Part shown: piece after piece, positions 19,161-58,587 of the stretch
Numbering within the stretch: the first letter of the stretch is position 1
Layout: each line of letters starts with the position of its first letter
Source: an uncultured Candidatus Saccharibacteria bacterium
Lineage (GTDB): Bacteria > Patescibacteriota > Saccharimonadia > Saccharimonadales > UBA10212
Direction of reading: 5' to 3'
Length of the DNA stretch: 64,000 bases
NCBI GenBank assembly: GCA_964567555.1
Contig: CAZMNA010000002.1
Span: 5,795 to 69,794 of the forward strand
Notes under the pieces: model-generated
What the model was told of the DNA's origin: nothing
Databases searched by the model: none
What the model saw: the letters and a program-made list of their open reading frames with translations, nothing else
Translations under genes and position numbers: made by a program

Positions 19161-20972
19161 TTAGTTATCATCGCTCGCCGCTACGCGGTTAATTTCGGTT
19201 AGTGTCGAAATGCCGGCTAGAGCCTTTAGGTAACCATCTTGGCGCATGGTTATCATACCGCTGGTTTCCATAGCCGACCGTTGGATCATGGAACTGGTAG
19301 CGTGTTTTATGATTAAATCTTGAATACTTTCTGTCACCTCAAAAGCCTCGTATAAACCCATGCGGCCTTTATACCCAGTGGGGTTTTCCACTGTTGGTTT
19401 GGCCTTAACAAGAGTATAAGCGCTTTGGCGTGATAGGGGCAAGGTTTTGTAGCCCAAATCTTTAGCAACTTTTGGCATATCTTGCCTTGTTTTAGGTAGT
19501 AAATTGCCAATTGTTTCTGTGATTTCGGCTGTCTCTACCTTGGAAGATGAATAAGGTTCGCCGCCTGAGATTACCCGACGGACCAGCCTTTGACCAATGA
19601 CGGTGTGCACAGTGGAGGCAATCAAAAACGGCTCCACGCCCATGTCTAAAAGACGCGGCAAAATACCGGCAGCAGTGTTGGTGTGCAAAGTTGAGAAAAC
19701 CAAGTGGCCTGTCAAAGCAGCCTGGACGGCCAAGTTAGCCGTTTCGCGGTCACGAATTTCCCCCACCATCACAACATCCGGGTCCTGGCGCAAAATTGAG
19801 CGAAGCCCAGTCGCAAAAGTAAGCCCGACCTCCGGGTTAATTTGGATTTGGTTAACGCCGTCCATTTTGTATTCCACTGGATCTTCCAGCGTCACAATGT
19901 TAATGCTCTCTTTTTTGATCTCCTGAATCATGGCATACATGCTGGTGGTCTTACCAGAACCGGTCGGACCAGATGTCAAAATCATGCCATAAGGCCGCTT
20001 TAGACCTTTTCTGATTAAACGTAAGGTGCGGCCGGTGTAGCCCATAGCTTCCAGCTGGAAGCTGGAGCCCGATTTATCCAGTAAACGTAAGATTACCTGT
20101 TCTCCCCACACTGTCGGGCTAACGGCCACACGCAAGTCTATTTCATTTTTCTCTACCCTAATTGTGAATTGACCGTCCTGCGGAACCCGGTGCTCATCAA
20201 TTTTAAGGTTAGCCAAAATTTTTATACGTGAGATTAAGGGCGCTTCGGTGGATTTAGGCAGTCGCATAACCTCGCGCAATACGCCGTCTACCCGGCAACG
20301 GACTTTAAGTTCCTTTTCTTGGGGCTCAATATGGATGTCGCTGGCTTGGTTGCGCGCGGCAAATTCCATGAGAGCGTTGAGGGCTTTACTTATGGGTGAA
20401 TCTTCGTTAATAATCTGGACTTTTTTGCCGGCTTCTTTGGGCGTCAGTGCAGCCGTAGCAGCTTGGGCAGTCGCCTCGGCGGCCTCTTCGGCCTTAACCA
20501 GCAGGCTGGTCACGCCTTCGTCTATGTTACGGTCATATTGAGTGAGTGCTTTTCTTATTCCGGATTCGCTGGCGGCATAAACTTGCAAGGGCCGTCCAAT
20601 TTTATTACTCAGAAAATCGACAGCTTGGAGGTTGTCGGCATTAAGCATTGCCACCACCAACTTTTCATCCATTTCGCCAAGCGGGATAGCCATGTAGTGC
20701 TGGGCGGTATCGCGCGGTAATAGCGCCAGTATTTCCGGACTGACTTGGGGTGATTCGCTTAAATTGACGTATGGTATGCCATTAACAATAGCCGAGGCAC
20801 GGGTGAATTCTTCATCGGTTACTTTGCCTTCGTTTAAAAGGAGGCTAAAAAGCGGCTGGTGAGCGCTTGCCGCCTTCTTTTTATATTCAGCCAGGCTAGC
20901 CTGCGAGATAACGCCGTCTTTAACTAGCTCATCTTCCAGTTGGGCTTGGGTAGTCGCGTTTAAAACGCTCAT
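19161..20972 (-). CDS. pilB: type IV pilus assembly ATPase (GspE/PilB family)
   Basis: GPTGSGKTTS, VMVGEIRD. The start is set at ATG 20972 (MSVLN); the track ORF extends 15 nt into the repeat element. Confidence 0.9.
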   Translation of the reverse strand: MSVLNATTQAQLEDELVKDGVISQASLAEYKKKAASAHQPLFSLLLNEGKVTDEEFTRASAIVNGIPYVNLSESPQVSPEILALLPRDTAQHYMAIPLGEMDEKLVVAMLNADNLQAVDFLSNKIGRPLQVYAASESGIRKALTQYDRNIDEGVTSLLVKAEEAAEATAQAATAALTPKEAGKKVQIINEDSPISKALNALMEFAARNQASDIHIEPQEKELKVRCRVDGVLREVMRLPKSTEAPLISRIKILANLKIDEHRVPQDGQFTIRVEKNEIDLRVAVSPTVWGEQVILRLLDKSGSSFQLEAMGYTGRTLRLIRKGLKRPYGMILTSGPTGSGKTTSMYAMIQEIKKESINIVTLEDPVEYKMDGVNQIQINPEVGLTFATGLRSILRQDPDVVMVGEIRDRETANLAVQAALTGHLVFSTLHTNTAAGILPRLLDMGVEPFLIASTVHTVIGQRLVRRVISGGEPYSSSKVETAEITETIGNLLPKTRQDMPKVAKDLGYKTLPLSRQSAYTLVKAKPTVENPTGYKGRMGLYEAFEVTESIQDLIIKHATSSMIQRSAMETSGMITMRQDGYLKALAGISTLTEINRVAASDDN

Positions 20973-21082
20973 CCCGTTTGACTCCAATAAACGACCGTTA
21001 ATTTATAAGCGGCTTGAAGCAAGCAGTGGTGTTCAGGCGTTACACCTGAGCTGTAGGCTAAGTGGAGTCTTACGGGACTCAT
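20970..21082 (-). mobile_element. 113-nt inverted-repeat element, copy a (MITE-like or structured leader) on the pilB start codon
   Basis: Minus strand ATGAG-TCCCGTAAGACTCCA...TGGAGTCAAACGGG-ATGAG. See findings. Confidence 0.65.
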
Positions 21083-21343
21083 CTACTGCCCCGTGAATGG
21101 CTGTGGGTTAGTTTTCCCGCCAATTCTAATCAGCTGGGTTGGGTCTATCGCTCCCGGATTAAAGATTTTTTGGTAGCTGGGGTCACTTGATACCGATGGA
21201 AAGTTGGCGCTAATAGGCGTAACCACCGGAACTTGTACAGAACGACTCCCCGGTGAGCCAAAGACTGCCTTTGATATAACCAGGGAAAAGATAGCCGCCA
21301 CAATACCAACTACAATTATGAGATAAAGATCGCTGCGCTTCAT
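21083..21343 (-). CDS. 86-aa membrane-anchored protein of the pilus operon
   Basis: N-terminal TM helix, Pro/Ser-rich tail. It lies between the pilO-like gene and pilB, flanked by two repeat elements. Confidence 0.55.
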   Translation of the reverse strand: MKRSDLYLIIVVGIVAAIFSLVISKAVFGSPGSRSVQVPVVTPISANFPSVSSDPSYQKIFNPGAIDPTQLIRIGGKTNPQPFTGQ

Positions 21344-21453
21344 CCCGTTAGAACCTCACTTGACTTATTGCCCTTGGCTAACATTGGATAATCCGTGCTT
21401 GCTTCAAACGTCCTATGAACATTTAGTGCTTTCTGAGTTCTTACGGGATTCAT
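21341..21453 (-). mobile_element. 113-nt inverted-repeat element, copy b, on the start codon of the 86-aa gene
   Basis: Minus strand ATGAA-TCCCGTAAGAACTCA...TGAGGTTCTAACGGG-ATGAA. Confidence 0.65.
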
Positions 21454-22121
21454 TTGACCACCTTCTTAACGCTCAAGTTGACCGCTTGTGACTGCTGGTA
21501 GTAACTGTTCATGGTAAGAGTCATCTGCAATTGGCCATCACTGCCGGATAGTTCCAAAGTTGAAACATCAAACGGCCTGATAGACTTTTCAAAATCCTGC
21601 ATCACTTTTTGGTCAGTGTTGTAATCACTGGTCCCAGAAAGGCTAAAGCTCATAACCACGGAGCTTGGTTTGGCCACCGAAGTATTTGGATTACTGGCCG
21701 AATCATCAGTAACGCTGATGGATTGTATGTCCACGCCGTGATTACTCAAGATTTTTTCTACCGTTGAAGCTAGCGCTGGTGCGTCATAAGTACTTGGCAA
21801 AGCGTCTAAAACTATCTGGGCATTGTTACCATCCGTACCGCCACTGCCTGCCACGTTGCCCCCTAGTATATTTGGGTCAGCAGAAGCAAAGTTTTGATAG
21901 GCTTTGGCCAGTGCCTGAGCGGCAGTGTAGTTGGACTCTAACTGTTTGACTGCTTGGTTTTTGGCCGTTAGCACACGCTGTTGGTAGGCGCCTTTGCTTA
22001 TCATAGCCTTAATACCAAACAGGCAAAAAATGACTATAACCACAGATGCCGCCACAACGCCCAGCATTGTAGTTTGAGCTTTGTTTAGTTCGGCGTGTTT
22101 GCCCGATATATGCAGTGCCAT
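21450..22121 (-). CDS. PilO-like pilus alignment protein
   Basis: 223 aa; N-terminal TM plus coiled-coil region; position after pilN. Confidence 0.55.
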   Translation of the reverse strand: MALHISGKHAELNKAQTTMLGVVAASVVIVIFCLFGIKAMISKGAYQQRVLTAKNQAVKQLESNYTAAQALAKAYQNFASADPNILGGNVAGSGGTDGNNAQIVLDALPSTYDAPALASTVEKILSNHGVDIQSISVTDDSASNPNTSVAKPSSVVMSFSLSGTSDYNTDQKVMQDFEKSIRPFDVSTLELSGSDGQLQMTLTMNSYYQQSQAVNLSVKKVVK

Positions 22122-24045: not shown

Positions 24046-26841
24046 TTAAAACACCGGAGGCAGGTTATAAAGGCCATTTAGCTTAGAGTTAGGCCAACTG
24101 AAGTTTGGTGTCCCCAGCACCATGCTCGGCACGTAATTAAAGATTTCGGCTGGGTCTGAGCCAACTCGGAAGCCTTTGCTGGTGTAGCCGGGGTCTTGCG
24201 GCCCAACCGTGCCATGGCCGCGCAAAAGATCATATTTTTGGGCGATGACTTCCCCGTTGACCGTCAACTGACGGGCACAGGAGGTACCATGTTCGTTGTT
24301 ATCGCAGGTAGCAAAAATACCTTTGTTGCCGCCACTATCCGGCTGGGCAATATATAGTCCGTCCAGATTCTTGACATTGCCAGAAAGCGTAATATTGCCT
24401 TTGGCAACTATCGCCAAAAATGGAATGTTAGACGGGTCGGTTGGGTTAAAGCTGCCAACATAGGTAATATCATTTTTTATAGTTACATCGCCATCGACAA
24501 ATATGGTTACCTGCTTCTTAAAATTTGAGGTAGCGTAGTTAATGTTTAGGGGACCGGTAGCGGTATACCGGCCGCTAGATAAGGTATTGATGTGTCGGTT
24601 GTTTAGCGGGGTAGTTGCGCCTTTGTAATTATCGTAAAAGTCCGGCACGCAGTGGGCCTGGGAGTTGGAGTTTAGGTAGCCGCCCAGCGGCGCAGTAGCG
24701 CCGCCGGTAGCCTTATCGGCAAAAAGTATGCCGCTTCCGCTTGCGCTATAAAAGCCGTAATGATCCGTTAGGTTACCGTATATTACGCCCAGCGCATCTA
24801 CGGCGTAGTCACCGTGCGAGCCCGCACCACTGGTAGCGTAAGCCTTAATGCCGCCTAGTGACGTGTCAGCATCGCTAGGATATGGAGTGGTTTGGGTGCA
24901 GTTGCCGTTAGTGTCATAAAAGCCGCCGCCGGTAAAGAAATCGCCCATATGATAGACAAAGTACGGCCGGGTGCTTGGCGTGGCGCTCCCCCCGGGGCAT
25001 GGAGTTACGCCGCTAGTAGGGTCAGTTACCTTCGCGCTAAATGTGCCCGTATATGCCAAGTATCCACTAAAGGGGACTGTTGTATCATATGGGGCTCCAG
25101 GGCTGAGATTGGTAACCGTTTGCGTGGTTGGGCCAGTTACATAGGCTCCCGGGTGAACGGTTAGCACAACCTTATAGTCGCCGCCATCGCCACTGCCGCT
25201 GGCTGTAATCGCAACTTTATATAACGTCGAGTCGCTTTGCCCGGGCTCCACATCATCACTCTCGGTAACGTTACAATTAACGGTAATGGTTGGGGTAGAG
25301 CCTGTACCGCAATTCCCACTGTCCCAGTTCACCTCCTGGGCGTCGCTGCCGGTATCATCATAAAGAACAAAACTTACAGCCTCATTCGCAGGTTTGACAA
25401 AGTAACCTGTGTTGTGTGGGAAGGGTGGGCTGGGTTCCTTCGTCTTCGTAGAAATTCTGCTTTCTTTAGGCTGGAAATTTAGGCTAAATCCACCGCTCGG
25501 CCAGTTTTGTTTTACCTTTTGTACTATGACTGGTTTACCTTTATATCTCTCCCTAACCTGGAAACCTCTGCCCCACTTATAGTTTGCTGTGTTGGTTACC
25601 GTAACTTGTACCTGGGTACCGGTGGTATCGCCCTCTACCGGCGTTGCCTTGCAGGTAAAGCTTGTGCACGTATACGATTGTCTGGCCGAAAATTCATCAA
25701 ATGGCACATACATTTGTATGGTGTTTATCTGGTTTACGTCATAAAATGCCAGGCGGTATCGGCGGGTGGTATGGGCCGTAAAGTCAATCTCATCGTACTG
25801 CCCACTGCCTGATTGAAATCCATTAGGATTGGTATTCTTGTCATATACCCCACTTAAAGTATTCTGAACGTGCCAGTTAAAGCCCGGGTCAGACCGCACG
25901 TCATAGCTAAGCGTCGCCTTTAAATTTGGCTGAGAGTACTCGGTCTTGTCCATGTCATACAAAAGAAGACTGGTTTTATCGTTATCATCTGCCTTGCCGG
26001 CTAAAATAGTGCAGTCCGGTGCAAATTGGAATGACCAGTCAAAGTTATTGGCGGTTGGGGGCCCTAGTTTTAGTTTAGGGTCTAGCTGGCGGCCGTAAAC
26101 ACCGGTATACGAAGTGGGGGACCCTACATTGCATTTGTTTTCGCCGTATCTGATCCCTAGCTTACAGCCCGTTCCCGGTACCGGTTCGGCCAGCCCAATG
26201 TACGAGCCCGGTTTAGCTCCCCCGCCGGTATATGAGCCGGTGGCAACCTTAATACGGAAAAGTTGTTCGGTAGGCGTGCAATCCGGTTTGCCTTTGGTAT
26301 TATCCGGGTGTCCGCAGGTTGTATCATTCAAAAGATGGGCTTGAACGGCAAATGTCCGCCAGCCTTCGTCATTGGCGCCTTGAGTGACAATCACGCCACT
26401 TCTGTGCGTGTTTATTGTTACTGTCCTTAGGTCTTTACTGCCGCTATCCGAACAACTGCTACTAGTTGAGGAACCGATTAGCGTAAAATCTCCGTTCTTT
26501 CCTCCGTTTTTGTCAATGTAGTAGACTGTGTACTTAACCTTCGGGTCGCCGAGGTTAGTTCCACACGGTGCTAATTCTACCGTGAAGTTTATGGTTGTCG
26601 CGTTAGCCGGCGCATAAGCCTTAACATAAGCGTAGGGCCCATAATAAGCGCCCATTCCCACCGCCAAGTACGGCGTAAATTGTGTGGTGTGATTGGCATC
26701 AGGCGTATAGGCATCGCCGGTTTGGGACAGCGGCGCTTGGCCGCCAATGGTAGTATTGCTTAAAGCACTTATCTTATGAGCAGGCCAAAACACCAGCCCG
26801 GCTGCAACCGCCGCGGCTAGCCACATTTTTTTGCCCATCAT
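24046..26841 (-). CDS. large secreted Thr/Gly/Asn-rich protein (931 aa), function unknown
   Basis: Signal-peptide-like N-terminus MMGKKMWLAAAVAAGLVFWPAHKISA. Two stem-loops with T-runs downstream (about 23975..24040). Confidence 0.6.
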   Translation of the reverse strand: MMGKKMWLAAAVAAGLVFWPAHKISALSNTTIGGQAPLSQTGDAYTPDANHTTQFTPYLAVGMGAYYGPYAYVKAYAPANATTINFTVELAPCGTNLGDPKVKYTVYYIDKNGGKNGDFTLIGSSTSSSCSDSGSKDLRTVTINTHRSGVIVTQGANDEGWRTFAVQAHLLNDTTCGHPDNTKGKPDCTPTEQLFRIKVATGSYTGGGAKPGSYIGLAEPVPGTGCKLGIRYGENKCNVGSPTSYTGVYGRQLDPKLKLGPPTANNFDWSFQFAPDCTILAGKADDNDKTSLLLYDMDKTEYSQPNLKATLSYDVRSDPGFNWHVQNTLSGVYDKNTNPNGFQSGSGQYDEIDFTAHTTRRYRLAFYDVNQINTIQMYVPFDEFSARQSYTCTSFTCKATPVEGDTTGTQVQVTVTNTANYKWGRGFQVRERYKGKPVIVQKVKQNWPSGGFSLNFQPKESRISTKTKEPSPPFPHNTGYFVKPANEAVSFVLYDDTGSDAQEVNWDSGNCGTGSTPTITVNCNVTESDDVEPGQSDSTLYKVAITASGSGDGGDYKVVLTVHPGAYVTGPTTQTVTNLSPGAPYDTTVPFSGYLAYTGTFSAKVTDPTSGVTPCPGGSATPSTRPYFVYHMGDFFTGGGFYDTNGNCTQTTPYPSDADTSLGGIKAYATSGAGSHGDYAVDALGVIYGNLTDHYGFYSASGSGILFADKATGGATAPLGGYLNSNSQAHCVPDFYDNYKGATTPLNNRHINTLSSGRYTATGPLNINYATSNFKKQVTIFVDGDVTIKNDITYVGSFNPTDPSNIPFLAIVAKGNITLSGNVKNLDGLYIAQPDSGGNKGIFATCDNNEHGTSCARQLTVNGEVIAQKYDLLRGHGTVGPQDPGYTSKGFRVGSDPAEIFNYVPSMVLGTPNFSWPNSKLNGLYNLPPVF

Positions 26842-31102: not shown

Positions 31103-31296
31103 AAATTCTTCACGCTTTGGACGGCAAAGCGTAGCAAACCGCCGGGCTGCGTTCAAACTGGAGCGTTCTTTACTTGCTAAAAAGCGGGCCAAGCCGAACT
31201 CCCTGACAGTCAGACATGTGTTTGGCCGCGTTTTTCCAGCTTCGCTTGAACTTCTGTTTGAGCCGATGCCCGGACCCAATTTTTCAGGCTCGAGCA
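31103..31296 (+). repeat. structured repeat family, diverged copy A
   Basis: Aligns along its length with 56515..56700 and 58356..58532, sharing blocks GCAAACCGCCGGGCTGCGTT, AGCGGGCCAAGCCGAAC and CCAGCTTCGCTYGAACTTCTGTTTGAGCCGATGC. Confidence 0.7.
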
Positions 31297-56395: not shown

Positions 56396-56514
56396 CCACC
56401 TAAAAGCCCGCGCCAAAAAATAATTTTCAACCATTTGCTTTTTGGCAAATGCGGGTGTTCTTTTTCAAGCCCACTATGCCGAAGTAGCCTCCGGCTACGA
56501 AGGCTGTAAGAACC

Positions 56515-56691
56515 AAATATTTTCACACTTTGAGCGGCAAAGTGTGGCAAACCGCCGGGCTGCGTTAAAACTGGAGCGTCCAGAGCTCGCTTTAAAAGCG
56601 GGCCAAGCCGAACGCCTTCGCTTTGCTCAGTTAAACATGCGTTTGGCCTCGCCTTTTCCAGCTTCGCTCGAACTTCTGTTTGAGCCGATGC
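56515..56691 (+). repeat. structured repeat family, copy B (177 nt, identical to copy C)
   Basis: Letter-by-letter identical to 58356..58532. Confidence 0.9.
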
Positions 56692-56754
56692 CCGGACCCG
56701 TGGCGCAAAAAGACGTCGAACCAGTAGGATGAGCCAATGTCCGGAGCCAAAAAC

Positions 56755-56792: not shown

Positions 56793-57554
56793 ATGAGCGT
56801 TATAACTATGCCCAAACTGCGGCGGCTAAACCTAATCGCCGGCTTGCTCCACCTGGCCCAAGGCGTGGCAGTACTACTCCTTTCTACCAATTTCAGCTTG
56901 CCTGTTACCGGCGGATATTTAAAATTTAACTCGGCTACAAAACACTTAGACCCGGGCAGTAACACGCTGTTTCATTTGCCCCTACCCTGGCTGGTGGCCA
57001 TCTTTTTCTTCTTGTCCGCCGCCTTCCATTTGGCTATCGCCACGTTTTATAACAAAACTTATGTCGCTAATCTGGCAAAAAATATCAACCGCGCCCGCTG
57101 GTTTGAATATTCGCTGTCGGCCGGTGTCATGATGGTCGCCATCGCGATGCTGGTGGGTATCTACGACGTCATGAGTCTACTGATGATATTTGTGCTGGTA
57201 GCCATAATGAACCTCACCGGCCTCGCCATGGAAGTTTATAACCAAGGCCGACAGAAGGTTAACTGGCTGGCTTACAGGCTCGGCAGTTTGGCCGGCATCG
57301 TGCCCTGGCTGGCGGTGGCTTTTTATATTGGCAACTCCAACCACGTCGGCAGCGGCGCACCGACCTTTGTTTACTTTATTTTTGGCAGCATCTTTATATT
57401 CTTTAGCTGTTTTGCACTCAACATGTACTTGCAGTACAAGTGTATCGGCAAATGGGCAGACTATCTTTACGGCGAAAAGGTCTACATTTGGCTAAGCCTC
57501 ATCGCTAAAAGCTTGCTTGCTTGGCAGGTCTTCGCCGGCACCCTCCGCCCTTAA
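56793..57554 (+). CDS. heliorhodopsin
   Basis: 253 aa, 7 TM. Strong resemblance, from memory of HeR 48C12, to RWVEYSLSSSVM (here RWFEYSLSAGVM), GIVPW (identical) and SLVAKSALAWQIFSGTL (here SLIAKSLLAWQVFAGTL, containing the Schiff-base Lys). Confidence 0.85.
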   Translation: MSVITMPKLRRLNLIAGLLHLAQGVAVLLLSTNFSLPVTGGYLKFNSATKHLDPGSNTLFHLPLPWLVAIFFFLSAAFHLAIATFYNKTYVANLAKNINRARWFEYSLSAGVMMVAIAMLVGIYDVMSLLMIFVLVAIMNLTGLAMEVYNQGRQKVNWLAYRLGSLAGIVPWLAVAFYIGNSNHVGSGAPTFVYFIFGSIFIFFSCFALNMYLQYKCIGKWADYLYGEKVYIWLSLIAKSLLAWQVFAGTLRP

Positions 57555-58335: not shown

Positions 58336-58355
58336 CCTCTAACCATCCATCCACT

Positions 58356-58532
58356 AAATATTTTCACACTTTGAGCGGCAAAGTGTGGCAAACCGCCGGG
58401 CTGCGTTAAAACTGGAGCGTCCAGAGCTCGCTTTAAAAGCGGGCCAAGCCGAACGCCTTCGCTTTGCTCAGTTAAACATGCGTTTGGCCTCGCCTTTTCC
58501 AGCTTCGCTCGAACTTCTGTTTGAGCCGATGC
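58356..58532 (+). repeat. structured repeat family, copy C
   Basis: Identical to 56515..56691. The downstream TTCAGGCTCGAGC block is shared with copy A. Confidence 0.9.
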
Positions 58533-58587
58533 TAGGGACCCATTCTTGGTTTCTTCAGGCTCGAGCCAAAAAGCTAGCGCTGCCTGC

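Follow-up and report, generated by a model that had tools for sequence, protein, structure and literature searches.

Correia elements (CREE) of Neisseria and the ERIC/IRU elements of enterobacteria are co-transcribed, multicopy MITEs of about 100–150 bp without a transposase, whose terminal inverted repeats can form a long hairpin and whose insertion creates a short target duplication; they are located in transcription units and can alter expression through the hairpin. Correia elements duplicate TA, lie at variable distances from genes and are found in both orientations. Rickettsia palindromic elements (RPE) are also palindromic mobile elements of reduced genomes, and persist in expressed genes because they are traversed by an open frame; they are inserted in frame inside coding sequence and become part of the protein. 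A translational precedent is termination–reinitiation coupling at ATGA and TAATG junctions, such as those of the trp operon, where an upstream frame ends on or near an occluded start and brings ribosomes to it or lets them in; the iraD leader ORF is said to be an example of a short upstream ORF coupled to a structurally occluded start. In piggyBac and IS1380-type DDE transposons, a 4-bp duplication of the T..A type lies beside CCC...GGG termini. Bacteria of the CPR (Patescibacteria) have tiny, gene-dense genomes that are thought to be poor in mobile DNA.

Here we analysed a 64,000-nt stretch of DNA (the window) that its PilB and TruB homologues assign to a Saccharibacterium, and in which three copies of a palindromic element of 105 or 106 nt lie exactly on the start codons of genes. 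The main fact, absent from the initial annotation of this DNA, is that they are transposon insertions with the start codon inside the target duplication. Four of the five features by which MITEs are recognised were found, i.e. short length without a transposase, terminal inverted repeats, a target duplication as compared with empty sites, and multiple dispersed copies. Functionally, the family is closest to co-transcribed MITEs of the Correia type and to the open-frame strategy of RPE. It differs from Correia elements in that TGNN within ATGRA is duplicated exactly on the start codon, the ATG is rebuilt from the last base of the element, only one orientation occurs, and a separate candidate coupling mini-ORF ends at the real start. 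This last feature also separates it from RPE, and membership in that group was rejected since the window mini-ORFs are out of frame with the downstream gene; the single in-frame exception in the family is a 72-nt insertion described below. Unlike in known coupling systems, the candidate coupling ORF is made by the target duplication of a transposon and is carried by a mobile element. From piggyBac and IS1380 the family differs in its target (TGAA or TGGA versus TTAA), and neither a transposase gene nor sequence evidence of a relationship was found.

Other assignments were considered and rejected. REP/REPIN sequences, which are mobilised by RAYT, are extragenic palindromes of 20–40 nt with a GTAG/CGTC head and no duplication, whereas the present elements have a duplication, other termini and a start-codon position. 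Elements derived from IS200/IS605 (PATE) have subterminal hairpins without terminal inverted repeats and insert 3′ of a fixed tetra- or pentanucleotide without duplication, whereas here the two ends pair with each other and the duplication is a true one. Integron attC sites were rejected because the arms do not fit the R''/R' core sites RYYYAAC...GTTRRRY on either strand. In the literature searched, of which coverage was incomplete and in which an earlier description may have been missed, neither this family nor any start-codon-targeting MITE is described.

The features of the three window copies are as follows.

21343–21448, minus strand: copy c, the element of the initial annotation, 106 nt, TCCCGTAAGAACTC...GAGGTTCTAACGGGA; its final base supplies the A in the real ATG of the 86-aa gene
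21449–21453, minus strand: left ATGAA of copy c, the original start codon and left target-site duplication; the upstream pilO-like gene (21450–22121) terminates at its TGA
21339–21343, minus strand: right ATGAA of copy c, the rebuilt start of the 86-aa gene, made of the terminal A of the element and the duplicated TGAA
21340–21453, minus strand: mini-ORF c, 37 codons, MNPVRTQKALNVHRTFEASTDYPMLAKGNKSSEVLTG (begins MNPVRTQKALNV...; MNPVRT); ends GGGATGA, with TGA overlapping the real ATG
21354–21357, minus strand: GAGG in the right arm of copy c, with its end 10 nt short of the real ATG; the fold pairs it with the left arm; −8.8 kcal/mol with a generic anti-SD
21458–21464, minus strand: native SD-like AAGGTGG of copy c, 4 nt upstream of the left ATG; −9.7 kcal/mol with a generic anti-SD; now serves the mini-ORF
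20972–21077, minus strand: copy a, before pilB, 106 nt; ATGAG at 21078–21082 and 20968–20972
20982–20985, minus strand: GGAG in the right arm of copy a
20969–21082, minus strand: mini-ORF a, 37 codons, MSPVRLHLAY...SQTG; ends GGGATGA, with TGA overlapping the pilB ATG
46221–46325, minus strand: copy b, before truB, 105 nt; ATGGA at 46326–46330 and 46217–46221
46232–46235, minus strand: GAGG in the right arm of copy b
46226–46330, minus strand: mini-ORF b, 34 codons, MDPVRTHLTS...FLRF; its stop, the TAA of TCTAACGGG, starts 7 nt before the truB ATG
19161–20972, minus strand: pilB, 603 aa, downstream of copy a
21083–21343, minus strand: 86-aa membrane-protein gene between copies c and a, conserved in relatives (85–87 aa)
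45574–46221, minus strand: truB, 215 aa, downstream of copy b

All three copies share the layout ATGRR, TCCCGTAAGA(A)CTC ... GAG(T)TC(W)AACGGG, ATGRR, and are flanked by 5-nt direct repeats (ATGAA in copy c, ATGAG in copy a and ATGGA in copy b). A fuzzy scan of the window found exactly three copies, dispersed and not in an array, versus 0.3 expected in shuffled sequence. Two of them lie in a minus-strand gene cluster with the order 931-aa ORF, pilM, pilN-like, pilO-like, 86-aa gene, pilB, pilT and pilC, copy c being located between the pilO-like and the 86-aa gene, and copy a between the latter and pilB. Neither Pfam nor NCBIfam has a match for the 931-aa ORF (24046–26841, minus strand) directly before pilM; in one relative (L095), a 993-aa counterpart occupies the equivalent position. 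The window also contains an unrelated repeat family of about 175–190 nt in three copies (31109–31284, 56512–56706 and 58353–58547), of which the last two are 99% identical to each other and the first about 81–87%. The two similar copies bracket a heliorhodopsin gene (56793–57554, Pfam PF18761, E 2e-91) together with a 222-aa ORF. This second repeat has no Rfam match, and may represent a further mobile element, a structured RNA or the edge of a heliorhodopsin cassette.

Empty sites were sought in the nearest relatives, with 72–77% identity in PilB, 55% in the pilO-like protein and 76% in TruB. The closest relatives have the same pil gene order with tight junctions, and all three orthologous sites are free of the element in them, each with one ATGAA, ATGAG or ATGGA. 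Site c is empty in four relatives (L095, L096, L098 and L099), with the sequence ...ATGAAacgcaaagat or ...ATGAAgcgtaaagat as against ATGAA[element]ATGAAgcgcagcgat in the window. Two of these relatives (L095 and L096) have a single ATGAG at site a, ...ATGAGcgttttatcc, as compared with ATGAG[element]ATGAGcgttttaaac in the window, and the truB site of another relative (L110) has a single ATGGA, ...cttcttaATGGAtggatac. Because the orthologous sites are empty and carry a single repeat, the three window copies are insertions whose target-site duplication contains the start codon. Moreover, the duplicated tetranucleotide varies with the second codon of the host gene (TGAA, TGGA, TGAG, TGTA), and since it follows that codon, the flanking repeat is a true duplication. 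The empty sites also display the native ribosome-binding region; together with AAGGTGG ahead of the left ATG in copy c, this agrees with the initial annotation, in which the original SD serves the left ATG. An element-sized gap is kept in eight other contigs with identical TruB, and copy b was identical in 6 of 6 junctions read among other samples of the same species. All three copies are fixed in the window species.

The wider family was collected with a pattern built from the termini without an ATG requirement, which was run on metagenome contigs and, in a strict version, also on genome contigs. In the metagenome contigs 93 stretches were matched, about 80 of which were judged genuine copies, having common 10-nt termini, extended complementary arms and a flanking 4-nt TGNN repeat; the strict pattern found one copy in a Saccharibacteria MAG among the genome contigs. 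The family termini are TCCCGTAAGA...TCWAACGGGA, with terminal inverted repeats TCCCGT..GA / TC..ACGGGA, and the length ranges from 68 to 120 nt. The TGNN repeat surrounds most of 76 copies, an A precedes the left repeat in most copies, and the left ATG is intact in 64 and has been lost or has decayed in about 10. Two matches in viral contigs had neither the stem nor the repeat and were rejected as chance matches. Copies come from Saccharibacteria and Parcubacteria metagenomes, and because the host of one subfamily is a Parcubacterium (Zambryskibacteria/Paceibacterota), the family spans at least two CPR classes.

In total, about 80 copies precede unrelated genes, and several loci hold two copies each. 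Two tandem copies (L092, 3161–3239 and 3244–3337) have one TGAA in common; thus a rebuilt ATGAA can serve as a target again. Further paired copies occur at 1633–1718 and 1723–1837 of L080, and nested copies in L041 (1433–1528). Short variants measure 68–81 nt. The copy in the Saccharibacteria MAG (L001, 1442–1509) is one of 68 nt, which with its 4-nt repeat adds 72 nt and has its left ATG in frame with a 151-aa gene; the ORF 1437–1964 starts at this ATG, and the element is read as an N-terminal extension of 24 residues. About seven copies are not on an ATG, have the repeats TAAA, TTTA, TTAA or TTGA, and lie near gene ends or between genes. One of them (L054, 1650–1744, repeat TTTA) is at the 3′ end of a gene whose ORF now terminates inside the element, at the TAA of TCCCGTAAGA; the insertion has thereby replaced the original C-terminal end and stop of the gene. 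Four homologous loci (L016, 2727–2839, and L052, L063 and L089) have the family termini inside a long ORF (1552–3996 in L016) without a flanking repeat, and may represent an old in-frame insertion or a chance resemblance. Longer XseA homologues were checked as possible element-derived N-terminal extensions and are not element-derived.

TGAA is the most frequent duplicated tetranucleotide (44 copies), followed by TGGA (16) and TGAG (5), with a few cases of TGAT, TGAC and TGTA. The last base of the element is A, and for this reason the right junction is always ATG. At 79% of element-bearing starts the ATG is followed by AA or GA, versus 30% of the other starts in the same loci (P 3e-18). ATGRA is therefore preferred, beyond any start codon. 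A long ORF lies directly behind >90% of copies. The downstream genes are intact and functionally unrelated to one another, and include housekeeping genes for pyruvate kinase (pyk), MurG, LigA, IleRS (ileS), CysRS, TypA, RNase HII, GreA, RecO, RuvX and XseA, and for the ribosomal proteins L9, L17, L18 and L29. In nine copies the target was an ATGA overlap, with the TGA stop of the upstream gene within the left repeat. The window has ATGRA at 31 non-start intergenic sites, at 30 predicted starts and at 292 sites inside coding sequence, so that loss of coding insertions alone would leave only about half of the copies at starts, as against the >90% found. Either the enzyme recognises features beyond the pentamer, or insertions elsewhere between genes are also selected against, and both options are compatible with these data.

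The orientation relative to the downstream gene is also fixed. In 59 of 62 pairs, interior similarity is in the same sense with respect to this gene, and the exceptions are one self-hit and two weak matches. About 13 matches seemed reverse-oriented, a reading that we rejected: their interiors share the gene-relative orientation, and they differ only by T.T instead of A.A mismatches at stem positions 7–8. As these matches keep the interior sense, the orientation of the interior to the gene is independent of the small terminal asymmetry. One subfamily (interior CGGAGAT...ATCTCC) has either A.A or T.T at these positions with the interior orientation kept; an inversion between the arms and the existence of two master copies are possibilities for this joint change of both arms. 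Fixed orientation could result from the insertion mechanism instead of from selection on translation.

As for the hairpin, the initial annotation had the SD of the right arm, together with the A of the real ATG, base-paired to the left arm, and folding agrees. All three window copies form the closing stem ATCCCGT.AGAAC/GUUCU.ACGGGAU in their MFE or centroid fold, where the U and A of the real AUG have as partners the final base of the left repeat and the opening base of the element. By unpaired probability, the real starts behind the window elements are among the least accessible (ranks 0, 2 and 6 of 50 gene starts). The fold z of the window copies with flanks is only −1.1 to −2.1 (dinucleotide shuffles), and the family median is −3.9 (mononucleotide shuffles). 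Stem pairs 11–13 are 88–96% Watson–Crick with four pair types each, i.e. they covary, and in the window subfamily the closing stem alone is shared, with 14 pairs, 3 of them compensatory (RNAalifold). Such covariation is expected of terminal inverted repeats and is no further evidence for an RNA switch. Furthermore, the antisense strand folds as stably as the sense strand (−28.4 versus −27.2 kcal/mol) and is equally rich in G-U pairs (174 versus 180). Given this lack of strand asymmetry in stability and G-U content, the pairing is that of a terminal inverted repeat and not of an evolved RNA switch, which we dropped.

These results bear on the idea that selected genes are preceded by a conserved cis-regulatory RNA, either a thermosensor or an SD-sequestering switch that responds to a ligand. 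In the three window copies, pairing does involve the start codon together with an SD-like motif, and the initial annotation had suggested an SD-sequestering switch, with temperature or ligand dependence as a check. Nothing in the data supports a temperature or ligand switch, and the hairpin is strand-symmetric. The downstream genes are functionally unrelated, orthologous sites in close relatives are empty, the interior is not conserved beyond the terminal repeats, and the SD motif is missing in 65 of 73 copies. Rfam gave four tRNAs only for the whole window at the gathering threshold, and for the region 20900–21520 at E <= 10 it gave nothing relevant, with no match to a ribozyme or intron family. 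Riboswitch and RNA thermometer were thus rejected as assignments, and the regulatory explanation is largely refuted and very improbable.

The initial annotation had also described a mini-ORF running from the left ATG through the element to the real start, and the sequences of all three copies contain it. The codon counts given there (37, 37 and 34) are correct, and only the copy label needed revision, since the 34-codon frame is that of the MDPVRT copy before truB and not of the MNPVRT copy. Because the ATG-to-ATG distance in the window is 109–110 nt, which is no multiple of 3, the window mini-ORFs are out of frame with the downstream gene and stop at its start. Across the family, the mini-ORF is the sole ORF of the element and has 3–44 codons. 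The encoded peptide is not conserved, and in ACGnnTGAA, the one interior motif that is, variation is found at codon positions 1–2 and not at position 3, in line with the earlier opinion that the mini-peptide is not the functional product.

Read-through was defined as a frame from the left ATG that reaches the real start, with its stop at −7 or later, and was scored in the 64 copies with a left ATG against dinucleotide shuffles of the interior, the statistics treating copies as independent. We found 18 read-through copies versus 6.0 expected (P about 5e-6). At GC >= 0.40 the ratio was 13 of 18 copies versus 3.3 expected, and in the window's own subfamily 7 of 8 versus 1.57 (P 5.5e-5), while AT-rich copies gave 5 of 46 versus 2.7 and had mini-ORFs that stop after 3–25 codons in the other 41. 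Antisense controls gave 5 of 64 overall and 3 of 18 in the higher-GC set. With a single exception (L027, +10), out-of-frame read-through has two stop positions: +1 (TGA of ATGA) for an ATG-to-ATG distance of 2 mod 3, and −7 (TAA of TCTAACGGG) for one of 1 mod 3. The only in-frame read-through is that of the 68-nt copy in L001, which is fused with its gene. The interiors of read-through copies align with one another like shuffled sequence (median identity 0.57 versus 0.55), and because they have diverged to this level, shared descent is a weak explanation of the open frames.

With respect to ribosome binding, GAGG in copies b and c and GGAG in copy a end 9–10 nt before the real ATG in the right arm, as had been noted. 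The window right arms gave −5.9, −8.8 and −6.8 kcal/mol against a generic anti-SD, which was used because the window holds no 16S gene and hence not the host's own anti-SD. With the same anti-SD, a duplex energy of <= −6 kcal/mol occurs at 27% of window gene starts versus 9% of random positions, and the window genome is a weak SD user. In the family, GGAG, GAGG or AGGA lies 3–12 nt before the real ATG in only 8 of 73 copies, namely the three window copies, L001, L077, L053 and two in L092. The SD-like motif may help in the window lineage and is not a family property; the earlier statement that the element supplies an SD holds for the window copies and fails as a general rule.

The same variation permits a simpler explanation, in which the insertion is the same and its translational features are by-products: the left ATG is there only from target duplication, the open frame is inherited or accidental, GAGG is part of the stem, and the downstream gene initiates independently whenever the hairpin opens, either spontaneously or through any ribosome or helicase that passes. 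Early stops in 41 of 46 AT-rich copies, decay of the left ATG in about 10 copies, the rarity of SD-like motifs, the tolerance of all these variants by housekeeping genes, and the equal fold energy and G-U content of both strands all agree with this explanation. It does not account for the 4-fold excess of read-through in higher-GC copies over both shuffles and antisense among interiors that are otherwise unrelated, nor for stops that fall at −7 or +1 in all but one case (L027), and the strict gene-relative orientation needs some sense-strand constraint. We consider it unlikely, though it is the strongest of the competing explanations.

Alternatively, the element might be cut in, or removed from, the transcript. 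RNase III could cleave at the base of the stem to produce a leaderless or very short-leader mRNA beginning with the rebuilt AUG, or RNA excision between the direct repeats could restore the native RBS and ATG. Correia elements of Neisseria are known RNase III substrates, and every copy has a long, near-perfect stem based exactly at the AUG and flanked by direct repeats, in fixed orientation and before housekeeping genes, in hosts where few genes have a strong SD. Selection for an open mini-ORF would be unexpected if the sequence were removed before translation, the structure has no strand asymmetry, and no ribozyme or intron family was matched; for these reasons we regard such processing as improbable.

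Our main reading, to which we assign a probability of roughly 0.6, is that of a MITE-like palindromic element which targets ATGRA start codons and in which, in some lineages, the mini-ORF keeps the downstream gene translatable. The element inserts into 5′-A|TGRA-3′ and duplicates TGNN. To its left remains the old ATG behind the native ribosome-binding region, and to its right the gene is intact and begins with the rebuilt ATG; at ATGA gene overlaps, the left copy preserves the TGA stop of the upstream gene. Ribosomes would load at the left ATG, translate into the element and melt the 5′ arm of the stem, which would free the real AUG. In the window lineage, where the open mini-ORF ends at ATGA or at the TAA of TCTAACGGG, they would terminate on the start or 7 nt before it and re-initiate, perhaps aided by GAGG or GGAG in the right arm as a lineage-specific extra. 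In AT-rich hosts with an early-closed frame, transient opening of the hairpin, post-termination scanning or independent initiation may take over. That expression is kept by translation of the mini-ORF is thus proposed from sequence patterns. The initial annotation had suggested translational coupling, and had named an early-interrupted mini-ORF with an intact downstream gene as the observation that would speak against it. The read-through of higher-GC copies supports coupling, and AT-rich copies with precisely such interruptions occur across much of the family. Since these early-stop copies and the approximately 10 copies without a left ATG have intact downstream genes, full read-through is not required everywhere.

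With regard to the mobilising enzyme, the 4-nt duplication together with terminal inverted repeats suggests that a DDE-type transposase moves the element in trans; we infer this enzyme, and with it the label 'MITE'. No IS-sized element with family termini was found in the window or in 110 loci, nor any autonomous element or transposase with these termini in about 0.7 Mb of DNA; a scan of all loci for unpaired termini gave candidates in L036 and L044, which were rejected as degenerate small copies or single ends and not IS elements. A more far-reaching and tentative proposal, which we hold to be possible and somewhat doubtful, is a start-codon-homing element of the CPR, for which a putative enzyme common to Saccharibacteria and Parcubacteria would read ATGRA at gene starts in a manner specific to the gene strand, and which would colonise essential genes by means of an evolved translational pass-through module. 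If this is true, the module would consist of the duplicated ATG with its native RBS, the open mini-ORF and the stop on the rebuilt ATG, and would allow even essential genes to be colonised where a genome is nearly devoid of intergenic space.

As a possible tool, an enzyme directed to ATGRA in a single orientation would be interesting. For annotation, gene callers can choose the wrong ATG or N-terminal extensions at element sites. For the biology of these organisms, landing on a start codon and rebuilding it is a way for mobile DNA to persist without free space. Dozens of genes, many of them housekeeping genes, have their start codon at the base of a stable hairpin and 110 nt from the original ribosome-binding site. 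Such buried starts bear on translation initiation in the CPR, and the natural variants of the mini-ORF constitute a natural experiment.
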